Assembly: GCA_951812855.1 (NCBI GenBank)
Contig: OX638337.1
Span: forward strand, 1,290,001 to 1,322,000
Reading direction: 5' to 3'
DNA: 32,000 nt
Origin: an uncultured Lentisphaeria bacterium
Lineage (GTDB): Bacteria; Verrucomicrobiota; Lentisphaeria; JABSQK01; JAJFLO01
Positions within the stretch are counted from its first letter, which is position 1; each line of letters begins with the position of its first letter. The position numbers and the translations under genes were made by a program. Of the stretch, positions 7,276 to 20,055 are shown piece after piece. A model generated the notes under the pieces. The model worked only from the letters and a program-made list of their open reading frames with translations. It did no database searches and was not told where the DNA came from.

Positions 7276-9261
7276 GTGACAGAGATACCCTACTTACATG
7301 ATATTGTCATTCTCTTCGGGTCGATTCTTGTTGTAATCGTTGCAAGTTATCGACTAAAAGTCCCCGCTATTATCGGATTCCTCGTGACTGGAGTTTTAGT
7401 CGGACCTCATGGCTTGAAACTTGTTCACGATTCTGAACATGTTGAGGTTTTTGCTGAGTTTGGTGTTGTGTTTTTATTATTTGTTATTGGAATTGAGCTT
7501 TCTTTTAATCAACTTAAAAAACTATGGCATTTTTTTATTATTGGCGGTTTTGTTCAGACAGTTGCAACGGTAAGCATAACAACGATAATTTGTATTAAAT
7601 TAGGTCATCCATTACCTCAGTCTATTTTTTATGGACTCTTAGTTGCGTTAAGCAGTACAGCAATTGTTTTAAGACTCTATTCGGATAAAAGAGAGTTAAA
7701 TTCTCCTCAGGGTAAGGTGTCAACAGCGATTCTATTATTTCAGGATCTGTTAATTGTTCCATTACTTTTGACTGTTCCGATTCTGGGCGGAACCGTTTCG
7801 GCAACATCTCCGGAACTAATCACCCGATTTGGCGGAGGTCTTGCGGTGGTTGCATTAACGTTTATAATCGGACGCAATGTTCTGCCTGTTTTATTAAAAT
7901 TAATCATCCAGACCGGGGTGCGCGAAATTGTTGTTATCGTATGTTTGTTTACGTGTCTGGGAGCCGCACTGTTAACCGAATCGTTTGGCTTCTCACTTGC
8001 CCTTGGTGCCTTTTTATCAGGAATCTTAATTTCAGAATCAGATTATCGATCACAGTTACTCGCTGAAATCACACCATTTCGTGACGTCTTCAACAGCATG
8101 TTTTTCATCTCGGTAGGCATGCTTCTGCACTTAGATTTCTTTTTTGAACACCTTTTTCCTGTCCTCTTCCTGGTTTTATGTATAATTCTATTAAAAGCAG
8201 TGATACTTATCGTCACGGTAGTTTTATTGAAATTTCCAATCCGAACAGCAATTATTGCAGCCATGGGATTAGCCCAGGTCGGTGAGTTTTCGTTTGTCCT
8301 TATTCGAGCCGGGTCCGTTCACGGTCTGTTTAATGATTATCATTATCAGATGGCTATAGCCTCTGCTGTATTTACCATGATTCTTACGCCACTGCTTTTC
8401 CGTATTGCACCAAAGATTGCAGCCATTTTCGATTCATTGTCGGGAACGAAAACGACTCCGATAGATTCAGAGACCTCCTCTTCGGCAACCGAGACCAAGG
8501 TGGTCGTATGCGGCTACGGTTTGAATGGCCGTCATTTAGCCAGAGTTTTAAAGACATCGCACGTTCCTTATATAATCATTGACTTAAACGGTTACAAAGT
8601 TGAACAGGCATTAAAAACAGGTGAACCGATAATATATGGCGATGTCACACGCCCGGAAATATTAATACACGGCGGTATCAAATCAGCATCCGTTGCAGTA
8701 TTGTCATTTCCGGATCCGCCGGCATTAAGACACAGTATACGACTCATGCGGCAGTTAAATCCTAATTTATACATTATTGTCCGATCGCAGTATCTATCTG
8801 AATGGGAAGAGTTACGCGATTGCGGTGCGGACGAGGTTATCGCACAAGAGTTTGAAACCTCTATTGAAATTGTAACAATGGTTTTGTCAAAATTACATTT
8901 GCCCGGTAATTTAATTCGGACACAATCCCGTATTCTGCGAGAAGATGGCTATGAAATGCTGCGTGCCCCATCTCCGGTTATCGGTATTTCAGAGAAGGTA
9001 TTCCAGGCATTGTATCAGGGGACAACAGACTCCTTTTTCCTTTCAGAGACCCATTTTGCTGTCGGTAAATCAATTTCAGAACTCCGGTTGCGAAAGGAAA
9101 CAGGGGCATCTGTTATTGCGATTGTTCAAGGGAATAATACTCTCACAAATCCGCCACCTGAACATGTCTTCAACAGTGGCGATGTTTTAGTAATGGTCGG
9201 CAGTCATGCTGAAATTGATAATGCATTTATTTTTCTTGAAAAAAGCAGGACAAGAAAATAG
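7276..9261 (+). CDS. Kef-type monovalent cation:proton antiporter (CPA2) with C-terminal RCK/TrkA-N and TrkA-C domains
   Basis: GTG start with aaagga 8 nt upstream. About 390 aa of Na+/H+-exchanger-like TM helices. Then a Rossmann motif VVVCGYGLNGRHLARVL and a TrkA-C-like end (GKSISELRLRKETGASVIAIVQG...GDVLVMVGS). Confidence 0.85.
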   Translation: MTEIPYLHDIVILFGSILVVIVASYRLKVPAIIGFLVTGVLVGPHGLKLVHDSEHVEVFAEFGVVFLLFVIGIELSFNQLKKLWHFFIIGGFVQTVATVSITTIICIKLGHPLPQSIFYGLLVALSSTAIVLRLYSDKRELNSPQGKVSTAILLFQDLLIVPLLLTVPILGGTVSATSPELITRFGGGLAVVALTFIIGRNVLPVLLKLIIQTGVREIVVIVCLFTCLGAALLTESFGFSLALGAFLSGILISESDYRSQLLAEITPFRDVFNSMFFISVGMLLHLDFFFEHLFPVLFLVLCIILLKAVILIVTVVLLKFPIRTAIIAAMGLAQVGEFSFVLIRAGSVHGLFNDYHYQMAIASAVFTMILTPLLFRIAPKIAAIFDSLSGTKTTPIDSETSSSATETKVVVCGYGLNGRHLARVLKTSHVPYIIIDLNGYKVEQALKTGEPIIYGDVTRPEILIHGGIKSASVAVLSFPDPPALRHSIRLMRQLNPNLYIIVRSQYLSEWEELRDCGADEVIAQEFETSIEIVTMVLSKLHLPGNLIRTQSRILREDGYEMLRAPSPVIGISEKVFQALYQGTTDSFFLSETHFAVGKSISELRLRKETGASVIAIVQGNNTLTNPPPEHVFNSGDVLVMVGSHAEIDNAFIFLEKSRTRK

Positions 9262-10042
9262 TATAGACAGATCCAATACCGTGATTAAAGTTACCCAATA
9301 TACCCTGCCCGGATTCTACAAATCCATTCAGCTGATTGTCAACATACAAAAAAAATTCAAGACTTTAATCCGGACTTTGTACTATTTTCCTGTCGGCATC
9401 TTTTTTTTGCTTTATCATTTGGAATCATATCAATTCTTGCGAAATTGTGTGCGGGCATTCCCGGCTGTTTTCTTTGTCGCAATGTGCTTCCGGACGGACA
9501 CTCATTTATCGACAGACTTTTACTTAAAATTGCATTTTTTAATACCCGGGCATTCATTCCCCATAGCGAAGAAGATTGAGTCAATGCCCAAAGAATTAAA
9601 CCGGGAATCCGTTCCTATCAAAATCCACATCCCCAAAATATTTTGAGAATTTGCATTTTTGACTAATTTTATTACGCAAAAGCAGCTGCGGAATTATTCT
9701 TTTTGCGGGGTTTATTGCAAACACCGAATATTCTAATTCAAATTGTGAAATCAGAGTAGTGTGCTTTGGTAAGGACTGAATTGCCTTATAAACATTAATA
9801 TAACGTTTTTTTATTGATCTAATATTCAGCTTTAATTCGAGTTTATTAAAAAAAATCAGGCAAAATACCCTGTCACAATTCCTTCTTTTTCCCGCTTATT
9901 TTTCCTGTCCCGCCATGTGTTTTAGATAAAATACAGGTCATCGCTGGAAGTTTCTGCATCTAATCGTTATCGTTCAGGCTTTCTCTAATTTGTTTGTTTA
10001 GATATTAATTACATTCAATTCGCAACCCTTGTTCACGATGTT

Positions 10043-12553
10043 ATGATTGGCAGCGTTTCTTTTTTCAATTCAGTTTACAGGCCTCTTATCACCCGATATC
10101 CAAGAGTTATTTTAGGGTGCCTGACAGCGGTATTTCTGTTTTTGGGTTACCAGGCTAAAGAGTTCAAACTTGATGCATCCGCAGATTCCCTGACTCTTGA
10201 AAATGATAAACATGTCGAACTCTATCGAAAGATAAGTAAACGTTATAGTAGCAATAGTTTTCTATTAATGACATATCGGCCAAATCACGGCAGAGTCTTT
10301 GGCCAGAAGAATCTCGATGAATTAAAACAATTGCGTAACGAATTACAAGAGTTGGATCGTGTCGAAAATGTCATAACTATTTTAGACGTGCCTCTATTAA
10401 GAAACCCGCCAGTCCCCATTAACAAACTCCTTGATAATATAAAGAATCTGGAAGATACCGAAACGAATCTCGAACTTGCAGCTGAAGAGTTTGCCTATAG
10501 TCCGATTTACAAAAATCTACTTATCAGCGAGGATCTAAAGACTACAGCACTGAAGATTGATTTTCTCAGAGATGAAAAATTTGACAAGCTGATAACCAAA
10601 CGAAATGACCTGAGAGAAAAAGAACGAAACGGCACGATAACATCTGCTGAGTTAACTCAATTAGAGAACACGATCAGGGAATTTGAAATCCACAAAATCA
10701 AAGCTGATAAAGAACGTCATGAGGATATAATCAGTGTCAGAGAAATAATGAACAAATATAAGACAAATGCAAAACTGTATTTGGGCGGAGTTCCAATGAT
10801 CGCTGATGATATGATCACATTTATTAAAAATGATCTTCAAATATTCGGCTGCGGCATGCTTTTTTTCATCACACTGATTCTCGGTCTCATATTTAGGAAA
10901 AAACGCTGGGTTGCCATATCCATTTTGTGCTGTTTTTGCTCAACGCTATCCATGGCAGGGATATTAGGAATATTTGGTTGGAAAGTTACGGTTATCTCAT
11001 CAAATTTCATTTCCCTGCAGCTTATTATGACAATGTCACTGGTCATACACCTGATTGTGAAATTTAACGAACTTAGTCATAACAATCCGGCCTGGTCTCA
11101 AAACGATCTGGTTTTTGAAACTGTGTCTTCTAAATTGCAACCCTGTATTTTTGCTGCACTCACTACAATTGCCGGATTCAGCTCTCTTCTGGTATGTGAT
11201 ATTTTACCCGTCATCACATTTGGCTGGATGATGATTATGGGACTGGTCGTTTCATTAATTGTTACCTTTTCCATGTTTCCAGCAATCCTGATATTATTGC
11301 CAAAATTTGACGAAAATATCGGAAATAATTTTGGACAACTCTTTATAAAAAAAATGATGTTTATCACTCAAAATCGTGGAAAGATGGTTTATTTCGTGAC
11401 GATAGCAATGGCCGTTTTAATTGGTATAGGAATCTCAAGAATCAGTGTCGAAAACAGCTTTATCAATTTTTTCAAAAAGACCACTGAAATCTATAAAGGC
11501 ATGAAAGTGATCGACCAGACGATGGGTGGAACGACTCCTCTTGATATCCTCATTGAATTTGAGACGGACCCGCAGTCTCCCGATCCCGGGAACGCCCCCG
11601 TTCAGGCAGTTGACGAATTTAGTGAATTTGACGAATTTGACGAAGCTGAAGACGACGACCGTTACTGGTATACTATGGATAAAATCGCTCTATTAAGCGA
11701 TATCCATGATTACATCGATGAATTGCCTGAAACAGGGAAAGTATTGTCACTGGAAACAATGATAAAAATTGCAGAAAGTTTTAATAATGATCAACCCTTA
11801 AATAACTTTCAGCTGGCATTGCTTTATTCTGAAATACCAGACTACTACAAGACAATGATCCTTGATCCATATGCCTCAATAGAAGATAATCAGGCCAGAA
11901 TAAACGTTAGAATAAGGGATTCAATGGAATCCCTCAAACGCAGTGAACTACTGAAGAAGATAGAGTCAGAAGTTCAAAGTAAATTTGGATTGAAAGATCA
12001 CCAGGTACAGTTATCCGGTATGATGGTCCTTTATAACAATATGCTCCAGAGTTTGTTTCAATCACAGATTAAGACAATGGGAGTGGTTCTCTTATTGTTA
12101 GTCATAATGTTTCTGATCTTATTCCAATCACCGAAATTAGCATTAATCGCGATTATTCCCAATCTCCTTTCAGCTCTGTCAGTATTGGGAGTAATGGGGC
12201 TTGCAGGTGTATCACTGGATATGATGACAATCACCATTGTTGCGATCAGCATAGGTATTGCAGTCGACGATACAATTCATTATATTCACCGGTTCAGAAA
12301 AGAGATTGTTATTGACTATTCGTATACAAATGCGATGAATCGATGTCATAATTCAGTCGGTAATGCTATGGTGTATACATCATGCACAATTATAGCTGGA
12401 TTTTCAATCCTGGTGTTTTCTAATTTTATCCCAAGCATTATTTTTGGTATTTTGACCGGTTTTGCAATGTTTACAGCCTTACTCGGTGCGTTGACTTTAT
12501 TACCATTATTAATCATGACATTTAAACCATTCGGGACCTCAGCATCCTGCTAA
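10043..12553 (+). CDS. RND-superfamily exporter of the MMPL/HpnN-like type (two sterol-sensing-like 6-TM bundles)
   Basis: 836 aa with a duplicated architecture: TM1, a large loop, then five TM helices, twice. The conserved second-half motif VAISIGIAVDDTIHYIHRF is typical of MMPL/HpnN-like RND exporters. Substrate is unknown. Confidence 0.8.
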   Translation: MIGSVSFFNSVYRPLITRYPRVILGCLTAVFLFLGYQAKEFKLDASADSLTLENDKHVELYRKISKRYSSNSFLLMTYRPNHGRVFGQKNLDELKQLRNELQELDRVENVITILDVPLLRNPPVPINKLLDNIKNLEDTETNLELAAEEFAYSPIYKNLLISEDLKTTALKIDFLRDEKFDKLITKRNDLREKERNGTITSAELTQLENTIREFEIHKIKADKERHEDIISVREIMNKYKTNAKLYLGGVPMIADDMITFIKNDLQIFGCGMLFFITLILGLIFRKKRWVAISILCCFCSTLSMAGILGIFGWKVTVISSNFISLQLIMTMSLVIHLIVKFNELSHNNPAWSQNDLVFETVSSKLQPCIFAALTTIAGFSSLLVCDILPVITFGWMMIMGLVVSLIVTFSMFPAILILLPKFDENIGNNFGQLFIKKMMFITQNRGKMVYFVTIAMAVLIGIGISRISVENSFINFFKKTTEIYKGMKVIDQTMGGTTPLDILIEFETDPQSPDPGNAPVQAVDEFSEFDEFDEAEDDDRYWYTMDKIALLSDIHDYIDELPETGKVLSLETMIKIAESFNNDQPLNNFQLALLYSEIPDYYKTMILDPYASIEDNQARINVRIRDSMESLKRSELLKKIESEVQSKFGLKDHQVQLSGMMVLYNNMLQSLFQSQIKTMGVVLLLLVIMFLILFQSPKLALIAIIPNLLSALSVLGVMGLAGVSLDMMTITIVAISIGIAVDDTIHYIHRFRKEIVIDYSYTNAMNRCHNSVGNAMVYTSCTIIAGFSILVFSNFIPSIIFGILTGFAMFTALLGALTLLPLLIMTFKPFGTSASC

Positions 12554-12609
12554 GTTCCAAACTCCATTTTGAATTTGGAAAGAGCACTGTCATTAACAAC
12601 ACCATCCCC

Positions 12610-13067
12610 TTAATCTGAACCATAGGTGATGTTAAAACAAGTTGCGGTATTGCAGTAAAATGCCTTATAATCATCCCGTCTGTAATTGGGATATGTCCAG
12701 AACTGAGCCTGCCAGGTTTTACGAGTATAAGTTAAAGTAATCTCACCAAATATTCCGTCGTCGCTTTTCGTTATACCTGTCTGTATCAGCTAATTTCTGT
12801 TCCAGATTCTTCGTTTGATTTTGATACCCGGAAGGTATGTTGGTAAAATTCTGTCAATAAATGCCGCCAGGGCAATATACAGGACAGGTCTTCACCCATA
12901 GATGGTTCATAATAATTTGTTTCTTCAAAAGAAAAGAGTTCACTCTTTGTTAACAATGGACCCCATTTACTAATACTTTGATCAAGCCCCCATTCTATTG
13001 CGTCCGGATAACGACTGATAAATCCGGTAATCAATATCACAGGTTTATGATTTGAAATTGTCCCCAT
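12610..13067 (-). pseudogene. Decayed DUF4416-family gene (frameshifts plus an apparent internal deletion)
   Basis: ORF 12786..13067 matches the N-terminal half of DUF4416 as I remember it (KPVILITGFIS...FSFEETNYYEPSMGEDL) and then loses similarity. Other minus-strand frames downstream read GIKIK.., ..TKNLEQKLAD.. and ...DDGIFGEITLTYTRKTWQAQFWTYPNYRRDDYKAFY...*, which is the family's C-terminal WTYPDY region. The central NLDPGY segment is missing. Confidence 0.55.
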
Positions 13068-13072
13068 ACCGA

Positions 13073-14177
13073 TTAATTCATCCTCGGTTTTAACGATGTT
13101 ATTGAATATTTCAATTTCCCCAACGTTATCAATTCATATATAATTTCAGCCGTCACAAATCCAGGGGCCGGGCTTACTTTATAATGTCCTCCAGTCATAA
13201 CCAGCCCGGAAATTTCCGGAATCGGTTCAATATACGGTTTCGATCTGTACTTACCGGACGAAGCCCCGCCCATTGATTGATCACCTTGCTATTCGCAGAC
13301 ACCGGAAGAATTTCTGCAATGTTATTTAACAAATGAACTCTCACTTTATCCGTTAATGATAAGTCAACCGATCTTTTGAGTTCTGTTGTTGAGCCTATTG
13401 CAAGCTGATTATTATTCAAAGGCCGGACAAAGATACGTTTCCAGCGGATAACCCGATCAATACGCTTTTTCTGCATTCGAAGAATAATTGCCTGCCCTTT
13501 AACAGGATTTACCCGGGTATACTTTTGTAAAGCGGAAGCTTGAATAACCCGAAGCCACAACAACACCTTCAGATAAAAGTTCTCCGTTTTTCGTCTTCAC
13601 ACCGATTGCCTCATCATTATCGATTAACAGATCAGTTATCCGGCAGTTTTCTAAAATGCCAACACTGAGCTTTCTGCAGGCGGCATTTAATGCGTTCAGC
13701 AGTAAATGAACATCAATTTGAGCATAAAATGAAGAACTGATCGCACACAAATCCTGTCCCTGAAATTTCAGGGACTATAAAGTTCAATTCTTTATCACTG
13801 ATTACTGAAAGTGTAATTTGTTAATTGCTTAACTCTGATTTCTGGAAGAACGCAGCCTCCTTCTTTGTTATCTCCGGCTGTGTGTGATGATCTGGATAGT
13901 ACTTTAATCCCGCCACATCGCCAGAACCCAACGCCAATTCCCGAAAAAGATTCCAGTTCCTGTATGTAGTTACTGAAACACAGTAATCCTGTATTATGAA
14001 TAAAATTAAATTCAGCGGAGATGGCGGTCACAGCACTCCCAGTGCTGAACCCGTGGCACCGGGCCCACAGAATTTATTTTCCGGAAGTGTAACCGAAATG
14101 TTGTTTTTCGCCAACTGGAAAGCGGTGCAGAGTCCTTTAATTCCATCTCCAGCGACGCTAAAACGCGGATTATTGGT
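13073..14177 (-). pseudogene. Decayed FAD-dependent oxidoreductase (DAO family, glycine oxidase ThiO-like), split over at least five frames
   Basis: Consecutive minus-strand fragments are collinear with DAO/ThiO proteins. (1) ..NPRFSVAGDGIKGLCTAFQLAKNNISVTLPE..GATGSALGVL*, a degenerate GxGxxG FAD fold. (2) ORF 13795..14031, YIQELESFSGIGVGFWRCGGIKVL. (3) ORF 13499..13750, QIDVHLLLNALNAACRKLSVGILENCRITDL...IGVKTKNGELLSEGVVVASGYSS. (4) ORF 13195..13566, NPVKGQAIIL...AIGSTTE...WAGLRPVSTD. (5) ORF 13073..13273, LVMTGGHYKVSPAPGFVTAEIIYELI. No single frame is open. Confidence 0.75.
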
Positions 14178-14180
14178 TTT

Positions 14181-15170
14181 TCAATTTTCAGGAACATCAT
14201 GGAGTAATTTATCAATCATATTTTCAGTCGTAATACCTTCAGCATCTGCGTGAAAATTCGTGATGATTCTATGACGTAATACGGGTTTGGCCAGGGCCCT
14301 GATATCTTCACATGCAACATTGTAGCGCCCATACAGAAGTGCTCGTGCTTTTCCAGCTAAAACCAATGCCTGTGACGCCCGACTTCCGGCTCCCCATTTA
14401 ATCATCTCTTTGACATATTTTAGAGAACTCCCGGTATTCCGTGTCGCTGACACAAGACGGACTGCATAAGAAACAACGTTTGATGAAACAGGCACTTCTC
14501 TTACCAGTTCCTGAATTTCAGTAAGTTCTTCACCCGTGAAAACTTTTTCAAGAGTCGGGTTATCAGGATTTGTCGTTCTCTGAACCATTTCTTTTTCCTG
14601 TTCTGCTGATAAATAATCCATTACAACGTTAAAAATAAAACGGTCAAGTTGTGCTTCAGGCAAGGGATAGGTCCCTTCAAGTTCGATTGGATTTTGTGTT
14701 GCCAAAACAAAAAAAGGCTTCTCAAGGGTATAGGTTTTTCCCCCTGCAGTAACCTGCCTTTCTCCCATTGCTTCAAGCAGTGCGGCTTGAGTTTTTGGTG
14801 GTGTACGATTAATTTCATCTGCCAGAATGATGTTTGCGAAAATTGGACCCTTGTTAAATGTAAATATTCGTTTTCCTGTTGCAGAATCCTCTTCAAGGAG
14901 TTCAGTTCCGCAAATATCTGCCGGCATTAAATCCGGTGTAAACTGAATTCGTTTACAGGTCAGCGAAAATATTTCAGCAATACTTTTTACAAGCAACGTT
15001 TTGCCCAGCCCCGGTACGCCTGTCATCAGACAGTGCCCCTGTGTTAATAGAGCGATAATCATCTCTTCAATAATCGTTTCCTGACCAATAATGACCTTTT
15101 GCAGCTCATTGGCAATTTTGTCCCTGGTTTTAGAAACTTTCGATATAATTTCTGAACTGTCCTGTTCCAT
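14181..15170 (-). CDS. MoxR-family AAA+ ATPase
   Basis: VIIGQETIIEEMIIALLTQGHCLMTGVPGLGKT (Walker A), FTPDLMPADICGTE, ILADEINRTPPKTQAALLEAM (Walker B/sensor) and FFVLATQNPIELEGTYPLPEAQLDRF. 329 aa, typical of the MoxR AAA_3 family. Confidence 0.9.
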   Translation of the reverse strand: MEQDSSEIISKVSKTRDKIANELQKVIIGQETIIEEMIIALLTQGHCLMTGVPGLGKTLLVKSIAEIFSLTCKRIQFTPDLMPADICGTELLEEDSATGKRIFTFNKGPIFANIILADEINRTPPKTQAALLEAMGERQVTAGGKTYTLEKPFFVLATQNPIELEGTYPLPEAQLDRFIFNVVMDYLSAEQEKEMVQRTTNPDNPTLEKVFTGEELTEIQELVREVPVSSNVVSYAVRLVSATRNTGSSLKYVKEMIKWGAGSRASQALVLAGKARALLYGRYNVACEDIRALAKPVLRHRIITNFHADAEGITTENMIDKLLHDVPEN

Positions 15171-15188
15171 GTTATTGAATACTTTCTG

Positions 15189-16322
15189 TTAATGAGTTAA
15201 TGCATACATAAATATATTTGTCCCTAACCGGGTGTAGAACACATGAGCAAAATCACTGATTTCCCTGCTTTGATAATAACGAAATACACGCCACCGATTA
15301 TGCGGTTCGTTAACCCATGCAGGCAACGCATCGTTTTGACAATAAATTACATCCCTGCCTCCATCCTCACGGGTAGACTCATATCGGTCCCCTGAGTAAG
15401 CTGCTGTTCCAAGATAATCTGATAATCCTGTCGTGCTTTCTCGAATTCTAAATCGAATGGTGGTTGACCAGTTTCCCAGATGATTCTTACCCCAGCCCAT
15501 TGAAATAATTGGTGTTGCAAGAACAGCAATACGACCTTTCACGGACATCGCCACCGCAGAATAAGTTCCCTGAGGCCACTTTTCTTCAATTACAAAATCT
15601 CGGACTGAATCGGGAAGATTACCGGGATCGGGTAATCCGCTGTAAAATGATTTAAACAAGGCGTGCGTGCGTTTTAACGGAAGGAACTTTTTTCCCGGAA
15701 AAACCTGCTTAAATGCGTCTTTAATTACCGGCGATGCCTCCCAGTCCGCAAAACTATGATGTTGTCCATGACTTCTGTTCTTGCGAAGAAATTCCGCATT
15801 AATTCCGGCATCAATATAGATAAACCCTCCCCGTTCCAAATATTTCCTTAAATTTCGTTTTTCCATCTCTGAAAGAGTCCAATCTTTTCGATCTCCAAAA
15901 TTGACAAAAATAAACGGGTGCTGAAAAATTATCGGATCTTCAAACGATGAAATGATCACCGGGTCCTTATTTATTTTTACTGTGGTTCTGTCATTGATCG
16001 CAGATAATAATGTCGGCAATGCATTCGGATAGTTCCGATGAATACTCTTCCCCTGTATCAGTTGAACGATTGATACATTCGGGAGACCTGATTTTTTAAT
16101 TGACAACTGACGTTGAGCATCGTGTGAATTGACCGGGTTTATCGCAAGGCAATCTGATTGCACTGTTATCGATGCAATAAAGATGATCAATAAAAATGAT
16201 TTTTTAAGATAAAATGAAAAATCTCGACTTCCGTTAAGCTCAAGACGGGTTATGTCATGTACAACTGAATTATTATCAGGATTACCGTCAGCTTTATTTA
16301 ATTTCACCGATAGCGTTGTCAA
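15189..16322 (-). CDS. DUF4159 domain-containing membrane-anchored protein
   Basis: Single hydrophobic segment (SFLLIIFIASITVQS) after a roughly 40-aa N-terminal tail. The core ALPTLLSAINDRTTV...IFQHPFIFVNFG...LSEMEKRNLRKYLERGGFIYIDAG...FKQVFPGKKFLPL...HALFKSFY matches the DUF4159 pattern I recall. That family commonly neighbours MoxR/Bat-type genes. Lies 18 nt upstream of moxR. Confidence 0.65.
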   Translation of the reverse strand: MTTLSVKLNKADGNPDNNSVVHDITRLELNGSRDFSFYLKKSFLLIIFIASITVQSDCLAINPVNSHDAQRQLSIKKSGLPNVSIVQLIQGKSIHRNYPNALPTLLSAINDRTTVKINKDPVIISSFEDPIIFQHPFIFVNFGDRKDWTLSEMEKRNLRKYLERGGFIYIDAGINAEFLRKNRSHGQHHSFADWEASPVIKDAFKQVFPGKKFLPLKRTHALFKSFYSGLPDPGNLPDSVRDFVIEEKWPQGTYSAVAMSVKGRIAVLATPIISMGWGKNHLGNWSTTIRFRIRESTTGLSDYLGTAAYSGDRYESTREDGGRDVIYCQNDALPAWVNEPHNRWRVFRYYQSREISDFAHVFYTRLGTNIFMYALTH

Positions 16323-16497
16323 TTTTACTCTGTTTATTATTTAATTTTAATCCGTAACCAGGGAATACTTAAAAACGTTCCGGATATAATCTGCTGTAAA
16401 CCAAAGAAATAATGTAGGGATATCTGAATTTATTCCAGTCTATGTCACAACTTAACTGTGCTGCGAAGCGGTGTCAGGTCTATTTTCCAGTTTACTT

Positions 16498-18048
16498 CTA
16501 CCTGCGATGTATCACTGCCGGGTGTTGAAATCTATTATGGTGGTTTAGAATGTCCAATAATTTCTTATTCTCAGATATTTCCAATATTCCTCTGACAAAT
16601 GCAATCGTCTCCTTATTATTTGAAACCCGGATCATTCGAACCATTTCTCCACCAATTTCATCTTCATCATCCATTAAGGTTTGTGCTAAAAGTTCCTGCC
16701 AGTTATCAAGTCTTCTATTAATAATTTCCATAAGTGCTTTAATACGAATGCTATTGTCATCATCAATGATCAAGTCGATTAATAAACGCATTGCTCCTAC
16801 ATTATCCAATCTCTTACTGTATGTAATGACGAACTCACGTATATCACTGTAGTGACTCATTGACAATCGCTGAAGATCCCTCATATCCAGTTTGCCATTG
16901 CGTAACAAAACATAGGTAACTCGACTTCTGATTTGCTGAAGTGGATCGTCGAGCAAATCAATAAGCAAATTAAGATTTGCAGTCTTCCAAAAATAATCTC
17001 CATAAGTCTGTAGTGCCAATTCACGAAAACCAATGTTTTTATGAGAGAAAAGTGCGATCAATTCCGCTTCACCGCCGTCCTTCATAAAACCGAGTTTTCG
17101 GATAATTTTAGTTCCGGAAATTTGGCTTATCCGATGATTACTCAGTCGCTTTTTTAATTCCGGATAATATGAAAAATTATTATTCTCAAACAAAATTATA
17201 AGTGCTTCAGTAGATATTTCAAAATCGTCATCGTCGGTCATTGATTTCAAAATGTTTATTGTTAATGTTATATTTAACCGGGCAAGGATCTTTACGTAGT
17301 GAAGTCGCAATGTTTTATCCGAGTCATTTTCAAGAAATTTAGTTTGGTTGACAAACTCCGCATGATTCAGTGAACTGCTAATCGCATTTAATGCCAATAT
17401 TCTAACATCCCTGTCCGAATCATGTAACAAGCCCAATATCGTGGAATTGTCAATAATTCCCTTGAAATGCTGATAGCCTGTAATCATATTCTTCCTCACA
17501 ATACTGTCATTGTCTGTAAATGCCTTTTTTATTATTAACTGCAAGTCCGGTGGAAATTGATGGGTACGAATCTGCCCGCGAATTCTTATAAATGTTCGAC
17601 CAAATCCCATTATATCCGGTATATAAGAGGACGCAATCCGTCTAATATGAACGTCTTCATCCCCAATCATAGTCAGAACTTCGTTACGAGAATTCTCTGG
17701 AAAAGGCCTGGTTTCGGTCATGGACACCAACGCAGACCGCCGTATACTTGCATCATCATCTCGCAGAGATCTTATGATCGCACTTTTCGCTGCAGAATGT
17801 GAATATTTTCCCAATATCAATACTGCACGTTTACGAATATCCACCGATGAGGATGTTAGATCTTCCAGACATTTTGTTATTGTCTGAATTTCTGATTCGT
17901 ATTTGTCATTCCCGCTTACCGACTGTATCACAATTGGAGACATTAGAAAAAACACCATTAGACAGGCTGAAAGGGCAGTAAAGTTGTTTGATTGAGTCAT
18001 GATGTATTGAGCTGTGTGACAAAAACAGAGGATTGTCTGGCAAGACAT
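16498..18048 (-). CDS. HEAT-repeat protein with N-terminal signal peptide or membrane anchor
   Basis: Repeated HEAT/PBS-lyase-like units (DIRKRAVLILGKY, DASIRRSALVSM, DVHIRRIASSYI, DSIVRKNMITGY, DRDVRILALNAI, QQIRSRVTYVL, NSIRIKALMEI). The N-terminus has a hydrophobic stretch, FTALSACLMVFFLMSPIVIQSVSG. The more likely start is the second Met (about 18000, MTQSNNF...). Confidence 0.7.
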   Translation of the reverse strand: MSCQTILCFCHTAQYIMTQSNNFTALSACLMVFFLMSPIVIQSVSGNDKYESEIQTITKCLEDLTSSSVDIRKRAVLILGKYSHSAAKSAIIRSLRDDDASIRRSALVSMTETRPFPENSRNEVLTMIGDEDVHIRRIASSYIPDIMGFGRTFIRIRGQIRTHQFPPDLQLIIKKAFTDNDSIVRKNMITGYQHFKGIIDNSTILGLLHDSDRDVRILALNAISSSLNHAEFVNQTKFLENDSDKTLRLHYVKILARLNITLTINILKSMTDDDDFEISTEALIILFENNNFSYYPELKKRLSNHRISQISGTKIIRKLGFMKDGGEAELIALFSHKNIGFRELALQTYGDYFWKTANLNLLIDLLDDPLQQIRSRVTYVLLRNGKLDMRDLQRLSMSHYSDIREFVITYSKRLDNVGAMRLLIDLIIDDDNSIRIKALMEIINRRLDNWQELLAQTLMDDEDEIGGEMVRMIRVSNNKETIAFVRGILEISENKKLLDILNHHNRFQHPAVIHRR

Positions 18049-18120: not shown

Positions 18121-19221
18121 CTATAGCTTCCCAATCCGTTTTAGTACGTTGAGAACCTCATCTCCTTCAGTATGCGATTCCCTCCAAACCTTTTCAGCCT
18201 CATTGGTAAGATCAACTTCCAGCCTGGAGAGCGTAACATATTGATCCAGTGATTTTTCAACCCGATTTCGTTTATGTCTGCCTGAAATCGCATTAAAATC
18301 ATCGACTAATTCTAAAGGCTTTCGAGAATAAAGTAAAGACACGGTAATCAGCGGTTTTTTCAGTTCGGGATTGTGCAGTACCGAATACATTGGAGAAACA
18401 TCGTCTTCAGCAAAATAGTCAAGTATACTGTAAAAACTGTTTGTTAAATCCGGATTAGGGAGTTCAAGGAGAAAAAGAGATTCAATCGTCCCTTCTGGAT
18501 CAAGAAGTAATTCATTGTAATTTGCCTTTAACTGTTTACCAAACGGTACGTCCTGATCATACTCAAATTGGCAAAAATGATTGAAATATGGTTTCGTTTT
18601 ATAAAGACAAAAATCTTCATAATCGATATTTCCATCAAGCTGTTTTAACTCTTCGCCTTTAATTGGAATATGCAGGAAATGATTTAACGACTCAATAATC
18701 ATTTTATTAAATGTTTTTTCAGGGATGCGTTGTTCAAATTTCACCTTATTCGAGAATACAATTAAATTACCTGTGTTACCCGCATCAATCGCCTTCGAAA
18801 CAGGTCCTTCCAGAAAACTAATGGTATTATCAACAAAATCAGATGATTCCCGCTGTGCATAAGGAACAACAAACACAAATACGGTTTTATTTGTTATGGA
18901 TATCGAATCTAATGCGGACAGATGTTCTAACATTACCGAACAAAGTCCGTTTCCAGTTCCCCCTCCGGTTGAACAGAATACGGTCTGTCCCTTAATGAGG
19001 TCAAGTGCCTTGTTTTTTACAGACTGGAATGCCTGTCTTCCAATTTCCGGATCCTTTCGTGAACCTTTAAGCTGTGCTTTACTTGAATGTGCAACCGCAC
19101 GAATTTTAGAACATGCTTCAACCTTATCAAGCTCCACTCCGGAAACATCAAATATTGTTGCACTCCCTTCGTCTAATAAACTGGCCAGTTTGCTTCCGGC
19201 CCCGCCAACTCCAACACTCAT
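18121..19221 (-). CDS. Divergent FtsZ/tubulin-superfamily GTPase (TubZ-like or FtsZ-like, 366 aa)
   Basis: GVGGAGSK at aa 4-11 (T1/G-box; FtsZ has GVGGGGxN). KGSRKDPEIGRQAF at aa 52-65 (compare the FtsZ GAGxNPxxGxxAA region). STGGGTGNG at aa 84-92 (tubulin/FtsZ signature GGGTG[ST]G, about 18946..18966). VFVVPYAQRE and LIVFSNK strands sit in FtsZ-like order. NIDYED at aa 198-203 (T7 NxDxxD, about 18613..18630). I cannot assign the C-terminal 160 aa or so. The GGAGGG Shine-Dalgarno lies inside the last codons of the upstream ORF. Confidence 0.75.
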   Translation of the reverse strand: MSVGVGGAGSKLASLLDEGSATIFDVSGVELDKVEACSKIRAVAHSSKAQLKGSRKDPEIGRQAFQSVKNKALDLIKGQTVFCSTGGGTGNGLCSVMLEHLSALDSISITNKTVFVFVVPYAQRESSDFVDNTISFLEGPVSKAIDAGNTGNLIVFSNKVKFEQRIPEKTFNKMIIESLNHFLHIPIKGEELKQLDGNIDYEDFCLYKTKPYFNHFCQFEYDQDVPFGKQLKANYNELLLDPEGTIESLFLLELPNPDLTNSFYSILDYFAEDDVSPMYSVLHNPELKKPLITVSLLYSRKPLELVDDFNAISGRHKRNRVEKSLDQYVTLSRLEVDLTNEAEKVWRESHTEGDEVLNVLKRIGKL

Positions 19222-19222
19222 A

Positions 19223-19546
19223 TTAACCCTCCAGGAAATTAGATGGTTTTATTGAATATATATTCTGACTGTAAAGCAGTTCTAACACCTTTGCCCCGTA
19301 ATTGGTAATGTAGAGATTTTTTCGATTATGTTCCTCAACCATACTGAGAAAACACAGCGTGGTTAACGACTCTATATAGGCAACAGCACTCTGCTTGGTC
19401 CGCGTAATTCTATGGTATTTTAAGTCATCATATGCGTTCGTTATATTATACTTAATATGCTGGCTTTCAGCTTTGGCTGCCCAATATAATATAAGGAAAT
19501 GATAATCCCTTAATGACGCGACCTGTTTATCAAATAGATCTTTCAC
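19223..19546 (-). CDS. Small winged-helix-like putative DNA-binding protein (TubR-like in size and position)
   Basis: 107 aa with a GTG start; aggaag lies 12 nt upstream. The segment ITRTKQSAVAYIESLTTLCFLSMVEEHNRKNLYITNYGAKVLELL has the helix-turn-helix plus beta-wing pattern of MarR/PadR/TubR-type wHTH proteins. The stop codon is 1 nt before the ATG of the FtsZ/tubulin-like gene. Assignment rests on pattern, not strong identity. Confidence 0.5.
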   Translation of the reverse strand: MKDLFDKQVASLRDYHFLILYWAAKAESQHIKYNITNAYDDLKYHRITRTKQSAVAYIESLTTLCFLSMVEEHNRKNLYITNYGAKVLELLYSQNIYSIKPSNFLEG

Positions 19547-19649
19547 ACTCGGTAATGATACTTCCTGTTTATTAAGAATATAAGTTAAAAATCAAATAAA
19601 AGCACAAAAAACCCCTCTAAAACCCGTTTCTACAGACGGATTCCCGGCA

Positions 19650-19682
19650 CTTAAAGCATAGTATACTATACTATGCTTTAAG
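19650..19682. promoter_or_regulatory. Perfect 16-bp-arm inverted repeat with 1-nt spacer (cttaaagcatagtata c tatactatgctttaag); candidate operator or centromere-like site
   Basis: Read directly. Located about 105 bp upstream of the wHTH gene start in the divergent intergenic region. The core contains TAGTATA half-sites. Confidence 0.55.
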
Positions 19683-19811
19683 ACAAGCAGTTTTTTAGGT
19701 TTTAGACAAATTTTTTACTGATAATATTCGAAAAATTACACAACCACCGAAACAGAATATACATAATACGCCTTGAACAAGCTTGTTGCGAGCTGCACGC
19801 ATATCTGTATT

Positions 19812-19833
19812 CTACTATAGTGTAGTATGGTAG
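19812..19833. promoter_or_regulatory. Imperfect inverted repeat (ctactatag tg tagtatggtag) sharing ACTATA/TAGTAT half-sites with the 19650 palindrome
   Basis: Read directly. ctac...gtag termini with internal actatag/tagtatg. The motif is related to the half-site of the 33-bp palindrome about 150 bp away. Confidence 0.35.
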
Positions 19834-20055
19834 AATGCTGGCTGTAAATTTGCGTGTTTCCTATCATAAAACATTTTATAGCAGCAGTATTTTTACAAAA
19901 TTTGTTATACATTGGATAAATCAAAACAAAATTTGTATGAATTTTATGTATCATTTTTATATTACGCTGGTTATAAAATATTTATTCTTAGAAAAATTGA
20001 TGGAAACAAAAAAGAAGGCAATCTGAATGCCGGATGTATAAAATACTCTATCTTC

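Follow-up and report, generated by a model that had tools for sequence, protein, structure and literature searches.

A chromosomal gene pair for a TubR-like winged-helix protein and a tubulin-fold GTPase with phased pentamer repeats upstream in Lentisphaerota and Kiritimatiellota

The 32,000-nt stretch of DNA analysed here (the window), which comes from a circular 1.94-Mb contig, carries blocks of phased pentamer repeats upstream of two adjoining genes, one for a small TubR-like winged-helix protein and one for a tubulin/FtsZ-fold GTPase. We consider it probable that the repeats, an adaptor/repressor and a filament GTPase together make up a chromosomal module of three parts, on the plan of a type III (TubZRC) partition system. 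To our knowledge, prokaryotic tubulin-based DNA segregation is known only for Firmicutes plasmids and phages and for jumbo phages, whereas the full three-part architecture found here is chromosomal and spans several orders of two PVC lineages that retain canonical FtsZ. Should this module move DNA, it would stand as the first centromere system of the tubulin type on a bacterial chromosome; should it move none, it would show a partition machine turned into an autoregulated host cytoskeleton. The two genes, and the Shine-Dalgarno sequence of the second, are as follows.

19223..19546, minus strand: tubR-like gene for a 107-aa winged-helix protein, GTG start (ORF, 34 homologues, AF2, PDB profile match)
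18121..19221, minus strand: tubulin/FtsZ-fold GTPase gene, 366 aa, TubZ-like in architecture (Pfam, AF2, Foldseek, 297 homologues)
19227..19232, minus strand: GGAGGG Shine-Dalgarno for the GTPase gene, within the final codons of the small ORF (sequence)

A sequence-only reading of this DNA had held that the small ORF stops 1 nt ahead of the GTPase ATG and contains the GTPase's GGAGGG in its final codons, and both statements were borne out. The minus-strand junction reads ...CTG GAG GGT TAA T ATG AGT GTT, with the TAA at 19223-19225, a lone spacer base at 19222 and the GTPase ATG at 19219-19221. The pairing was found in all 86 loci compared, which comprise the window, 80 GTDB species loci and 5 metagenome loci and belong to Lentisphaerota and Kiritimatiellota. 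In every one, the GTPase gene is immediately preceded on the same strand by the small gene, with a stop-to-start spacing of -4 to +4 nt, and in 85 of them a GGAG, GAGG or AGGA motif stands ahead of the GTPase start. The divergence of the two proteins also co-varies across loci (r = 0.81). With 86 of 86 loci in agreement, the coupling is not due to chance, and the pairing proposed from the single locus is kept in its homologues.

Blocks of a pentamer repeat strictly phased at 5 bp, A[C/G]TNN with the consensus ACTAT/ACTAC, lie in the DNA upstream of the pair. Runs of at least three phased units were observed 124 times as compared to 0.9 ± 1.0 in dinucleotide shuffles, and of the periods tried only 5 yields arrays, periods 3, 4, 6 and 7 giving 0 runs. 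The 41 kb of upstream DNA contains 126 runs, as opposed to 16 in 690 kb elsewhere, of which 10 are just slightly farther upstream. Hexamer-level enrichment agrees, with ACTATA, ACTATACT, ACTACACT and ACTATAGT 28- to 114-fold over-represented in the 400 nt upstream. At least one run is present in 76/86 loci; the other 10 have no run of at least three units inside 500 nt, some of them having incomplete upstream sequence or runs farther out. The longest arrays reach 11 units, and 37 of 78 loci have at least two blocks, spaced ∼150 nt apart. The upstream pentamer repeats are new here; neither the pair nor the pentamer motif was found described in the literature searched. In the window, the region 19547..19900, which had been proposed for binding assays, carries this conserved repeat element.

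19547..19617, minus strand: proximal leader of ∼70 nt, conserved with the closest relative, L013 (alignment columns 401-478)
19650..19682: perfect 33-bp palindrome with 16-nt arms and a 1-nt centre, enclosing the proximal block (palindrome scan)
19660..19672: proximal pentamer block AGTATACTATACT, 3 units, beginning 126 nt upstream of the GTG
19814..19826: distal pentamer block ACTATAGTGTAGT, 3 units, beginning 280 nt upstream of the GTG, kept in L013

As compared to the closest relative, the best-conserved stretches of the upstream DNA are the repeat blocks and the proximal leader, and the proximal block keeps both its position and its sequence despite diverged flanks. The palindrome around it is the longest perfect one in the window, of which 30 dinucleotide shuffles gave arms of 12 at most. 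The proximal leader is probably the promoter and 5' UTR. A weak sigma-70-like -10 hexamer overlaps the distal block (-35 at 19848, -10 end at 19819, minus strand) in a scan whose total is not above chance, and promoter and terminator scans alike gave counts no higher than chance.

The small protein has 34 homologues in a collection of 5.8 billion proteins (97-140 aa, most of them 107-109; 49-87 % identity), and an alignment of 24 of these contains 30 invariant columns, so the ORF is not a chance reading frame. AlphaFold2 (AF2) predicts a winged helix with a pLDDT of 95.7, with helices H3 (35-44) and H4 (51-63), a β-hairpin wing (67-80) and H5 (82-93). The recognition helix and wing that had been placed in the C-terminal half are recovered in the model, where the helix-turn-helix and wing are central to C-terminal and two N-terminal helices come first. 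Two elements of this fold stand out in the alignment of 24 homologues.

19358..19405, minus strand: codons for residues 48-63, the invariant TRTKQ motif and predicted recognition helix H4 (alignment, model)
19307..19348, minus strand: codons for residues 67-80, the β-hairpin wing (model strands 67-72 and 75-80)

T48, R49, T50, K51 and Q52 are invariant, as are N74, R75 and K76 at the wing tip. The best PDB sequence-profile match of the protein is TubR of the B. megaterium plasmid pBM400 (4asn_A; E 3.7e-4, full length), which is the sole significant one, the next having an E of 0.026. Aligned with hhalign to the pBM400 TubR family, the small protein scores 89.8 % (E 1.8e-6, 86 columns). TubR 4asn_A likewise gives the highest TM-score for the model (0.68/0.80, rmsd 2.6 Å), and three more TubR entries are listed among the matches. 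Searches of PHROGs and PADLOC with the small protein gave no match. An exhaustive profile search of 1.84 billion representatives yielded only 14 clusters, so the link to TubR rests on the PDB profile match, hhalign and the fold; 13 of the clusters are real, and the top one, P0161 (7727 aa), was rejected as a false positive whose score sums 58 repeats at 6.3 bits each. As judged from these profiles and the predicted fold, the small protein is distantly related to plasmid TubR. The structure and profile checks suggested by the sequence-only reading thus came out in favour of a DNA-binding winged-helix fold, and its proposal that gene order, sizes and coupling denote a TubR-TubZ-like pair is supported by that fold, by TubR as the top PDB profile match and by the pairing in 86/86 loci.

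The GTPase, for which 297 homologues were found, scores 31 bits against Pfam Tubulin, slightly below the cutoff of 33, and its AF2 model (pLDDT 86) has the tubulin/FtsZ fold. Three features were located with 30 homologues and the model.

18946..18966, minus strand: codons for G86-G92, the GGGTGNG tubulin/FtsZ signature (T4) motif (30 homologues)
18613..18630, minus strand: codons for N198-D203, a putative T7 loop N-I-D-Y-E-D (NxDxxD; model topology)
18124..18159, minus strand: conserved C-terminal peptide EVLNVLKRIGKL (30 homologues, model)

G86, G87, G88, G90, N91 and G92 are invariant and T89 is nearly so, and the motif aligns with GGGTGTG of FtsZ. D200 and D203 are invariant as well, and N198-D203 sits in the loop between an H7-like helix (168-191) and a helix at 201-208; from this topology we infer a T7 loop, the sequence alignments to FtsZ and TubZ ending before it. 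Towards the C-terminus, a long helix (303-327) leads into a linker, with a pLDDT below 60 past residue 330. This linker varies in length among the 30 homologues, with insertions of up to ∼20 aa, and the tail that follows keeps the consensus VLxVLKRLGKL.

The affinities of the GTPase are divided between FtsZ and TubZ. FtsZ gives the top Foldseek E-value (4e-18, TMq ∼0.6) and the top PDB profile match (E 7e-7, versus 1.3e-5 for TubZ/RepX), and it shares with the GTPase the GGGTGxG motif, an NxDxxD-type motif past H7 and a short conserved C-terminal peptide after a variable linker. B. cereus TubZ (4ei7_B; Foldseek E 1.8e-15) gives the best TMq (0.71) and the longest alignment (382 columns). Profile alignments to either family span only the N-terminal 100-150 residues with similar scores; with hhalign, the GTPase scores 84.6 % against pBM400 TubZ and 92.4 % against E. 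coli FtsZ, both alignments being limited to the N-terminal 100-108 columns. The sequence of the GTPase is no nearer to TubZ than to FtsZ and does not allow it to be placed in the TubZ clade, and TubZ proteins are themselves highly divergent (PMC9871819). Assignment as FtsZ proper was rejected, as the score with NCBIfam ftsZ TIGR00065 is 14.1 bits where the cutoff is 295.2, and Pfam FtsZ_C has no match. Moreover, only the N-terminal ∼100 residues align with FtsZ, the gene lies outside the dcw cluster, and FtsZ is not known to be paired with a TubR-like gene. PhuZ and the phage TubZ of jumbo phages share the tubulin fold (PHROG 'tubulin PhuZ', a weak match at E 1.1e-3; BFVD matches, TMq 0.55-0.71), but identity is at most 15 %, and here there is no phage context and no relatives were found in phage collections. 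FtsZl1 (Pfam Tubulin_2), described by Makarova and Koonin in 2010, is likewise a divergent chromosomal bacterial GTPase of the tubulin superfamily (PMC2875224). It was rejected as an assignment because PF13809 gave no match at E ≤ 1; its operon partners differ from those here, and the 2010 paper does not mention these taxa (PMC2875224).

The architecture as a whole is most like that of TubZRC, in which repeats precede a gene for a ∼100-aa winged-helix protein and then the tubulin-like GTPase gene (pBtoxis, pXO1/pBc10987, pBM400 and the C. botulinum phage c-st). As far as we know, every characterised TubZRC with TubR partitions a plasmid or phage genome. The sizes are close: in pBM400-type DNA a 101-aa tubR overlaps a 374-aa tubZ by 4 nt with a repeat array directly upstream, whereas here proteins of 107 and 366 aa are encoded with a 1-nt gap. 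Homology between the small protein and pBM400 TubR is detectable, and in the GTPase, too, a flexible basic tail comes after a long C-terminal helix. In TubZRC, tubC is always upstream of tubR, with direct or inverted repeats split into blocks, and TubR has two roles, as repressor of the operon and as binding partner of the TubZ C-terminal tail (PMC6009700, PMC7762940); the repeats here also lie upstream, direct and inverted, in blocks. The c-st repeats are short, just 4-5 bp (PMC6009700, PMC7762940), and set a precedent for pentamers (PMC6009700). The repeats nevertheless differ in kind, being a 5-bp ACTAY pentamer in strict phase, while the pBM400-type control array has a period of 40 nt. The systems also differ in setting (chromosomal housekeeping contexts in Lentisphaerota and Kiritimatiellota as opposed to Firmicutes plasmids and phages), and no TubY-like gene is conserved near the pair.

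The working that we infer for such a module would combine repeat binding, autorepression, polymerisation, a tail interaction and DNA movement. Its DNA element would be the two pentamer blocks, A[C/G]TNN in 5-bp phase, upstream of the operon. The 107-aa protein most likely binds them through the TRTKQ start of the recognition helix and the NRK wing tip, and in doing so it probably forms a dimer or a larger oligomer. Bound there, it would repress its own operon, as in TubZRC. The translationally coupled GTPase most likely polymerises with GTP, and its basic amphipathic tail on the flexible linker is the likely contact with the protein-DNA complex or the membrane. The filament would engage the same nucleoprotein complex that represses the operon, again as in TubZRC.

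The alternative that survives best holds that there is no DNA cargo: the winged-helix protein would be an autorepressor only, the repeats would be its operator, and the tail-tethered GTPase would serve shape, division or membrane organisation. We regard this as possible, if on the unlikely side. The tail is compatible with it, since the hydrophobic moment of EVLNVLKRIGKL is ∼0.8 and one face of the peptide is basic, as in the membrane-targeting helices of MinD or FtsA; the C-terminal peptide resembles such an amphipathic helix as much as a TubR-binding tail. The repeat blocks fall 50-300 nt from the start codon, where an operator would be expected. Canonical FtsZ and the dcw genes are retained in these phyla (PMC12283558), so the GTPase is an extra paralogue, free for another role. 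Precedents exist as well. Some Clostridia carry a chromosomal tubulin-like TubZ with TubY that is thought not to segregate DNA, although TubR is absent there (PMC7762940), whereas here a TubR-like gene is always present and TubY was not seen. In archaea, CdrS-ftsZ2 is reported to pair a small DNA-binding regulator with a tubulin homologue (PMC7439475). Against a filament without DNA cargo, a simple operator would need neither as many as 11 phased units in an array nor two blocks ∼150 nt apart, the small protein has no detectable relative other than a centromere-binding adaptor, and translational coupling that is strict in all 86 loci suggests physical partners made in a fixed ratio. Known TubZRC systems combine operator and centromere functions, so the operator and centromere readings are not mutually exclusive. 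A chromosomally fixed cytomotive module and a regulator-plus-filament pair, the two options left by the sequence-only reading, both remain live.

Within the TubZRC-like module that we favour, a more specific assignment can be made, which is tempting but doubtful: the pentamer blocks would be a chromosomal centromere, with the TubR-like protein serving as its kinetochore-like adaptor, and the TubZ-like filament would be the motor for positioning or segregating that region, all vertically inherited in Lentisphaerota and Kiritimatiellota. If true, a bacterial chromosome would be handled by a tubulin homologue instead of, or besides, ParABS. With (ACTAY)n in 5-bp phase, the analysis supplies a DNA motif that can be tested, and the pair is carried by the cultured Lentisphaera marina IMCC11369, Oligosphaera ethanolica DSM 24202 and a Pontiellaceae isolate (Pontiella).

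A partition cassette from a plasmid or prophage that integrated into the chromosome and persists without serving the host would also account for an architecture that matches plasmid and phage type III systems (PMC6009700), and the flanking genes do vary, contexts being different in every sampled locus, with a tyrosine-recombinase gene immediately upstream at one (L003). We consider such a remnant very unlikely. The module is in a chromosomal, non-mobile context: its GC content is in line with that of its surroundings, and the absence of nearby replication, conjugation, phage or integrase genes noted from the sequence holds for all Pfam-scanned ORFs of at least 100 aa, every scanned neighbour in the window being a housekeeping gene (three ORFs of at least 100 aa, nested in or overlapping a longer opposite-strand ORF, were left out of the scan). 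Together with the circular 1.94-Mb contig, this is not the plasmid or phage carriage that characterises type III systems, and tblastn of the GTPase against 72,556 plasmids and 50,697 phage records gave no match, nor was a relative found in IMG/VR. The pair spans several orders in two phyla at 46-90 % identity with intact motifs and co-varying divergence, which fits long-term purifying selection.

That an unrelated MarR/PadR-type regulator merely chances to adjoin a divergent FtsZ paralogue is hardly credible: Foldseek E-values of the small protein are ∼1e-3 with TubR and with MarR-, PadR- and ArsR-type regulators alike, and the protein matches no Pfam or NCBIfam family at E ≤ 1, hence no MarR/PadR profile, but adjacency and coupling hold in 86/86 loci, the family has very few members and none outside these loci, and sequence-profile matches single out TubR.

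Other associations of the locus were considered. A link to oriC, the terminus, parAB or the dcw cluster was rejected, as the sampled loci all differ in context, and position within the circular contig is uninformative because the contig start is arbitrary. A role as a defence system was also set aside, PADLOC giving no match for the pair. Clustering of the flanking ORFs across loci revealed no TubY-like or other universal third gene; a Ser/Thr kinase gene lies downstream of the pair in 26 loci only.

The TubR-like gene and the GTPase gene share the minus strand and are separated by a single base, in the following arrangement.

19546 (GTG) to 19223, minus strand: small ORF, 107 aa
19227 to 19232, minus strand: GGAGGG, within the final codons of the small ORF
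19221 (ATG) to 18121, minus strand: GTPase gene, 366 aa

The junction reads CTG GAG GGT TAA T ATG. The sequence-only reading had the small ORF end 1 nt before the GTPase ATG and placed the GTPase Shine-Dalgarno motif inside its last codons, and both points were correctly described. It had also likened the two genes to a TubR-TubZ pair, and a survey of related genomes upholds their co-occurrence. When one genome from each GTDB species was scanned with the GTPase profile, 91 loci came up and 80 were retained; HMM searches then covered six-frame ORFs from these 80, five metagenome loci and the window (n = 86). Pairing is universal among these testable loci, with both genes on one strand and the small gene immediately 5' in 86/86. 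The stop-to-start distance is -4 nt in 47 loci, -1 in 4, +1 in 25 and +2 to +4 in 10, a Shine-Dalgarno-like motif precedes the GTPase start in 85/86, and identity to the window copy co-varies between the two proteins (r = 0.81). Most of the 80 loci are labelled Lentisphaerota (Victivallales, Oligosphaeraceae, Oligosphaera ethanolica DSM 24202, Lentisphaera marina IMCC11369), Kiritimatiellota (Kiritimatiellales, Pontiella, Tichowtungia) or 'Verrucomicrobia' MAGs, with a few oddly labelled bins. Complete pairs are also present in three loci with record labels outside the PVC group (L063, Bacteroidaceae; L065, Deltaproteobacteria; L076, Anaerovoracaceae), which points to mis-binning or rare transfer.

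The small ORF is a real gene, with no match in Pfam or NCBIfam and 34 homologues in a protein-collection search (97-140 aa, mostly 107-109 aa; 49-87% identity). Thirty alignment columns are invariant (n = 24), including T48-R-T-K-Q52 and N74-R-K76. The gene calls of the source assembly (L087, the same DNA as window positions 18121-19546 plus flanks) contain the GTPase and HEAT-repeat genes and miss the small GTG-start ORF, and the protein collection holds no 100% identical copy of its product. Annotation probably tends to overlook small tubR-like genes, and this would account for the 34 matches for the small protein versus 297 for the GTPase.

The small protein is predicted to be a winged helix-turn-helix, as the sequence-only reading had proposed. 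Its AlphaFold2 model, built on the alignment (pLDDT 95.7, pTM 0.89), comprises helices 2-10, 14-28, 35-44 and 51-63, a beta-hairpin (67-72/75-80) and helix 82-93. The invariant TRTKQ marks where the recognition helix begins, and the tip of the wing carries the invariant NRK. Against all PDB sequences, the family profile gave a single significant match, TubR of Bacillus megaterium pBM400 (4asn_A, E 3.7e-4; residues 1-93 aligned to 1-90), the next match having an E-value of 0.026. In a Foldseek search of the PDB, 4asn_A ranked second by E-value and had the top TM-scores (0.68/0.80, rmsd 2.6 Å); further TubR entries (3m8e, 3m9a, 6aht) were returned, and MarR/PadR regulators likewise had E-values of ~1e-3. 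Alignment with the pBM400 TubR family (five sequences) by hhalign gave 89.8% probability and E 1.8e-6 over 86 columns. Exhaustive searching of 1.84 billion representatives with the profile yielded 14 clusters, one of them a false positive: the top match, P0161 (7727 aa), was rejected as a relative, being a giant repeat protein whose score sums fifty-eight matches to profile positions 25-51, spaced 97 residues apart and worth 6.3 bits apiece. Taken together, these searches indicate a small, lineage-specific family whose sole detectable relative is TubR.

The GTPase falls just below the Pfam Tubulin cutoff (31 versus 33 bits). FtsZ proper was rejected (14 bits versus an NCBIfam cutoff of 295), as was FtsZl1/Tubulin_2, of which it is not a member in the Pfam scan. 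Because canonical ftsZ and dcw genes are kept by Lentisphaerota and Kiritimatiellota (PMC12283558), the GTPase is an additional paralogue. The best 120 of its 297 homologues have at least 50% identity, and GxGGAGxK, GGGTGNG (86-92), (N/H)xDxxD (198-203; both Asp invariant) and LYSRKP are common to the 30 aligned. Both domains of the tubulin/FtsZ fold are present in its AlphaFold2 model (pLDDT 86), together with a long helix (303-327) and a tail of low confidence. By Foldseek the best E-values belong to FtsZ (4e-18, TMq ~0.6); B. cereus TubZ (4ei7_B) aligns over the greatest length (382 columns, E 1.8e-15) and with the top TM-score (0.71). Only the N-terminal part was aligned by PDB profile search (FtsZ 7e-7, TubZ/RepX 1.3e-5) and by hhalign (pBM400 TubZ 84.6%; E. 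coli FtsZ 92.4%), and such profiles do not separate FtsZ from TubZ kinship. Beyond a variable linker with insertions of up to ~20 residues, the C-terminal peptide VLxVLKRLGKL is conserved (n = 30) and strongly amphipathic (hydrophobic moment ~0.8).

A new conserved DNA element lies upstream of the pair, represented in the window by the following features.

19650 to 19682: perfect 33-bp palindrome, the longest in the window
19660 to 19672: proximal pentamer block, inside the palindrome
19814 to 19826: distal pentamer block

The palindrome has a 16-nt arm, versus a longest arm of 12 nt in 30 shuffles, and palindromes built from the same words occur at orthologous loci. Across 80 dereplicated loci, the 400 nt preceding the small gene show a 28-fold enrichment of ACTATA/TATAGT and a 70- to 114-fold enrichment of ACTATAGT, ACTACACT and ACTATACT, with each word present in 35-70 loci. 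The repeat unit is a pentamer, A[C/G]TNN (consensus ACT-A-T/C), found in both orientations with a strict 5-bp phase. Runs of at least three units number 124, versus 0.9 +/- 1.0 in dinucleotide shuffles, and runs of at least four number 56 versus 0.1; periods of 3, 4, 6 and 7 gave zero runs in the same test. The 41 kb of upstream sequence contain 126 runs, versus 16 in the other 690 kb, ten of which sit 518-764 nt upstream of the small gene. At least one run is present in 76/86 loci, with arrays of up to 11 units, and 37/78 have at least two blocks (median spacing 150 nt). Between the window and its closest relative (L013, GTPase identity 90%), the best-conserved upstream stretches are the two blocks and a ~70-nt proximal leader. 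Farther upstream, ACAAAATTTGT occurs twice exactly (19895-19905 and 19926-19936, 31 nt apart), the copies forming an 18-nt imperfect inverted repeat outside the pentamer motif.

Every type III system described so far has its tubC 5' of tubR, as blocks of direct or inverted repeats, with units of only 4-5 bp in phage c-st, and TubR bound to tubC represses the operon and engages TubZ via the TubZ C-terminal tail (PMC6009700, PMC7762940). As a positive control, the array directly upstream of a bona fide pBM400-type tubR (L086:3678-3997) was recovered and ends 4 nt before the start codon; its period is 40 nt, whereas the blocks described here have a 5-bp phase. The module matches type III anatomy point by point but lacks one defining feature, carriage on a plasmid or phage. 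Some Clostridia are reported to carry a chromosomal TubZ with TubY and without TubR (PMC7762940), whereas the window module has a TubR-like gene. We consider it fairly likely that the pair and its repeats form a chromosomal TubZRC-like module, in which the TubR-like protein would bind the phased blocks, repress its own operon and, through contact with the conserved GTPase tail, couple block DNA and any cargo to a polymerising, GTP-driven filament. Alternatively, the TubR-like protein may be an autorepressor only, serving a cytoskeletal filament tethered to the membrane, perhaps by the amphipathic tail; we regard this as the main rival reading, and as less likely. The TubZRC-like module is of high interest because it puts all parts of a tubulin-type partition architecture on the bacterial chromosome, and it yields a precise motif and cultured organisms for testing. 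The superfamily surveys PMC2875224 and PMC9871819 mention neither Lentisphaerota/Kiritimatiellota nor the pair, and no description of it was found in the literature searched.

A mobile-element remnant is highly improbable. PHROGs gave a weak match to 'tubulin PhuZ', and BFVD matches were to phage tubulin/FtsZ-like proteins at no more than 15% identity. A tblastn search with the GTPase matched none of 72,556 plasmids or 50,697 phage records, IMG/VR yielded no relative, and PADLOC returned nothing for the pair. The source is a circular 1.94-Mb contig, and in GC content the region around the pair (0.34-0.37) resembles the neighbouring DNA. Window ORFs of at least 100 aa, scanned except for three nested in or overlapping longer opposite-strand genes, have housekeeping functions (homoserine dehydrogenase, LeuA-like enzyme, NadC, Kef-type antiporter, MMPL, MoxR, three mevalonate-pathway enzymes, PPDK, TGT, NamZ, L21) or no match. 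Across loci the flanking genes are ordinary chromosomal genes that vary, with no conserved third gene beside the pair, and beside so constant a pairing a chance neighbour is scarcely credible.

In 26 loci only, the GTPase gene is followed on its own strand by a Ser/Thr kinase gene (~570 aa), as at L080:5152-6855 (Pfam Pkinase E 1.6e-24, start within 65 nt of the GTPase gene). The kinase may be a clade-specific regulatory partner, and kinase genes also lie near the pair in L001-L004. In L003/L004 (8440-9447), a tyrosine-recombinase gene (Phage_integrase family, 335 aa) adjoins the pair upstream, after ligA and a gyrB-like gene; its product may resemble XerC/D and not be the integrase of a mobile element. 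In the window, genes for a 516-aa HEAT-repeat protein (PADLOC model HEAT-ARM_XIII, E 5.6e-13), DUF4159 and a MoxR AAA+ ATPase follow directly downstream (14181-18048, minus strand), beginning 72 nt past the GTPase stop; this trio is absent from the conserved flanking-gene clusters. GC skew flips from positive to negative within ~8000-13000, near 9-13 kb, where long-ORF orientation also switches from plus to minus, 7-10 kb from the pair; this could be replication-related or just a coding-strand effect. A 123-aa ORF on the minus strand (13195-13566) aligns to no more of the 353-position DAO (FAD oxidoreductase) profile than positions 214-322 and is probably a gene fragment or pseudogene.
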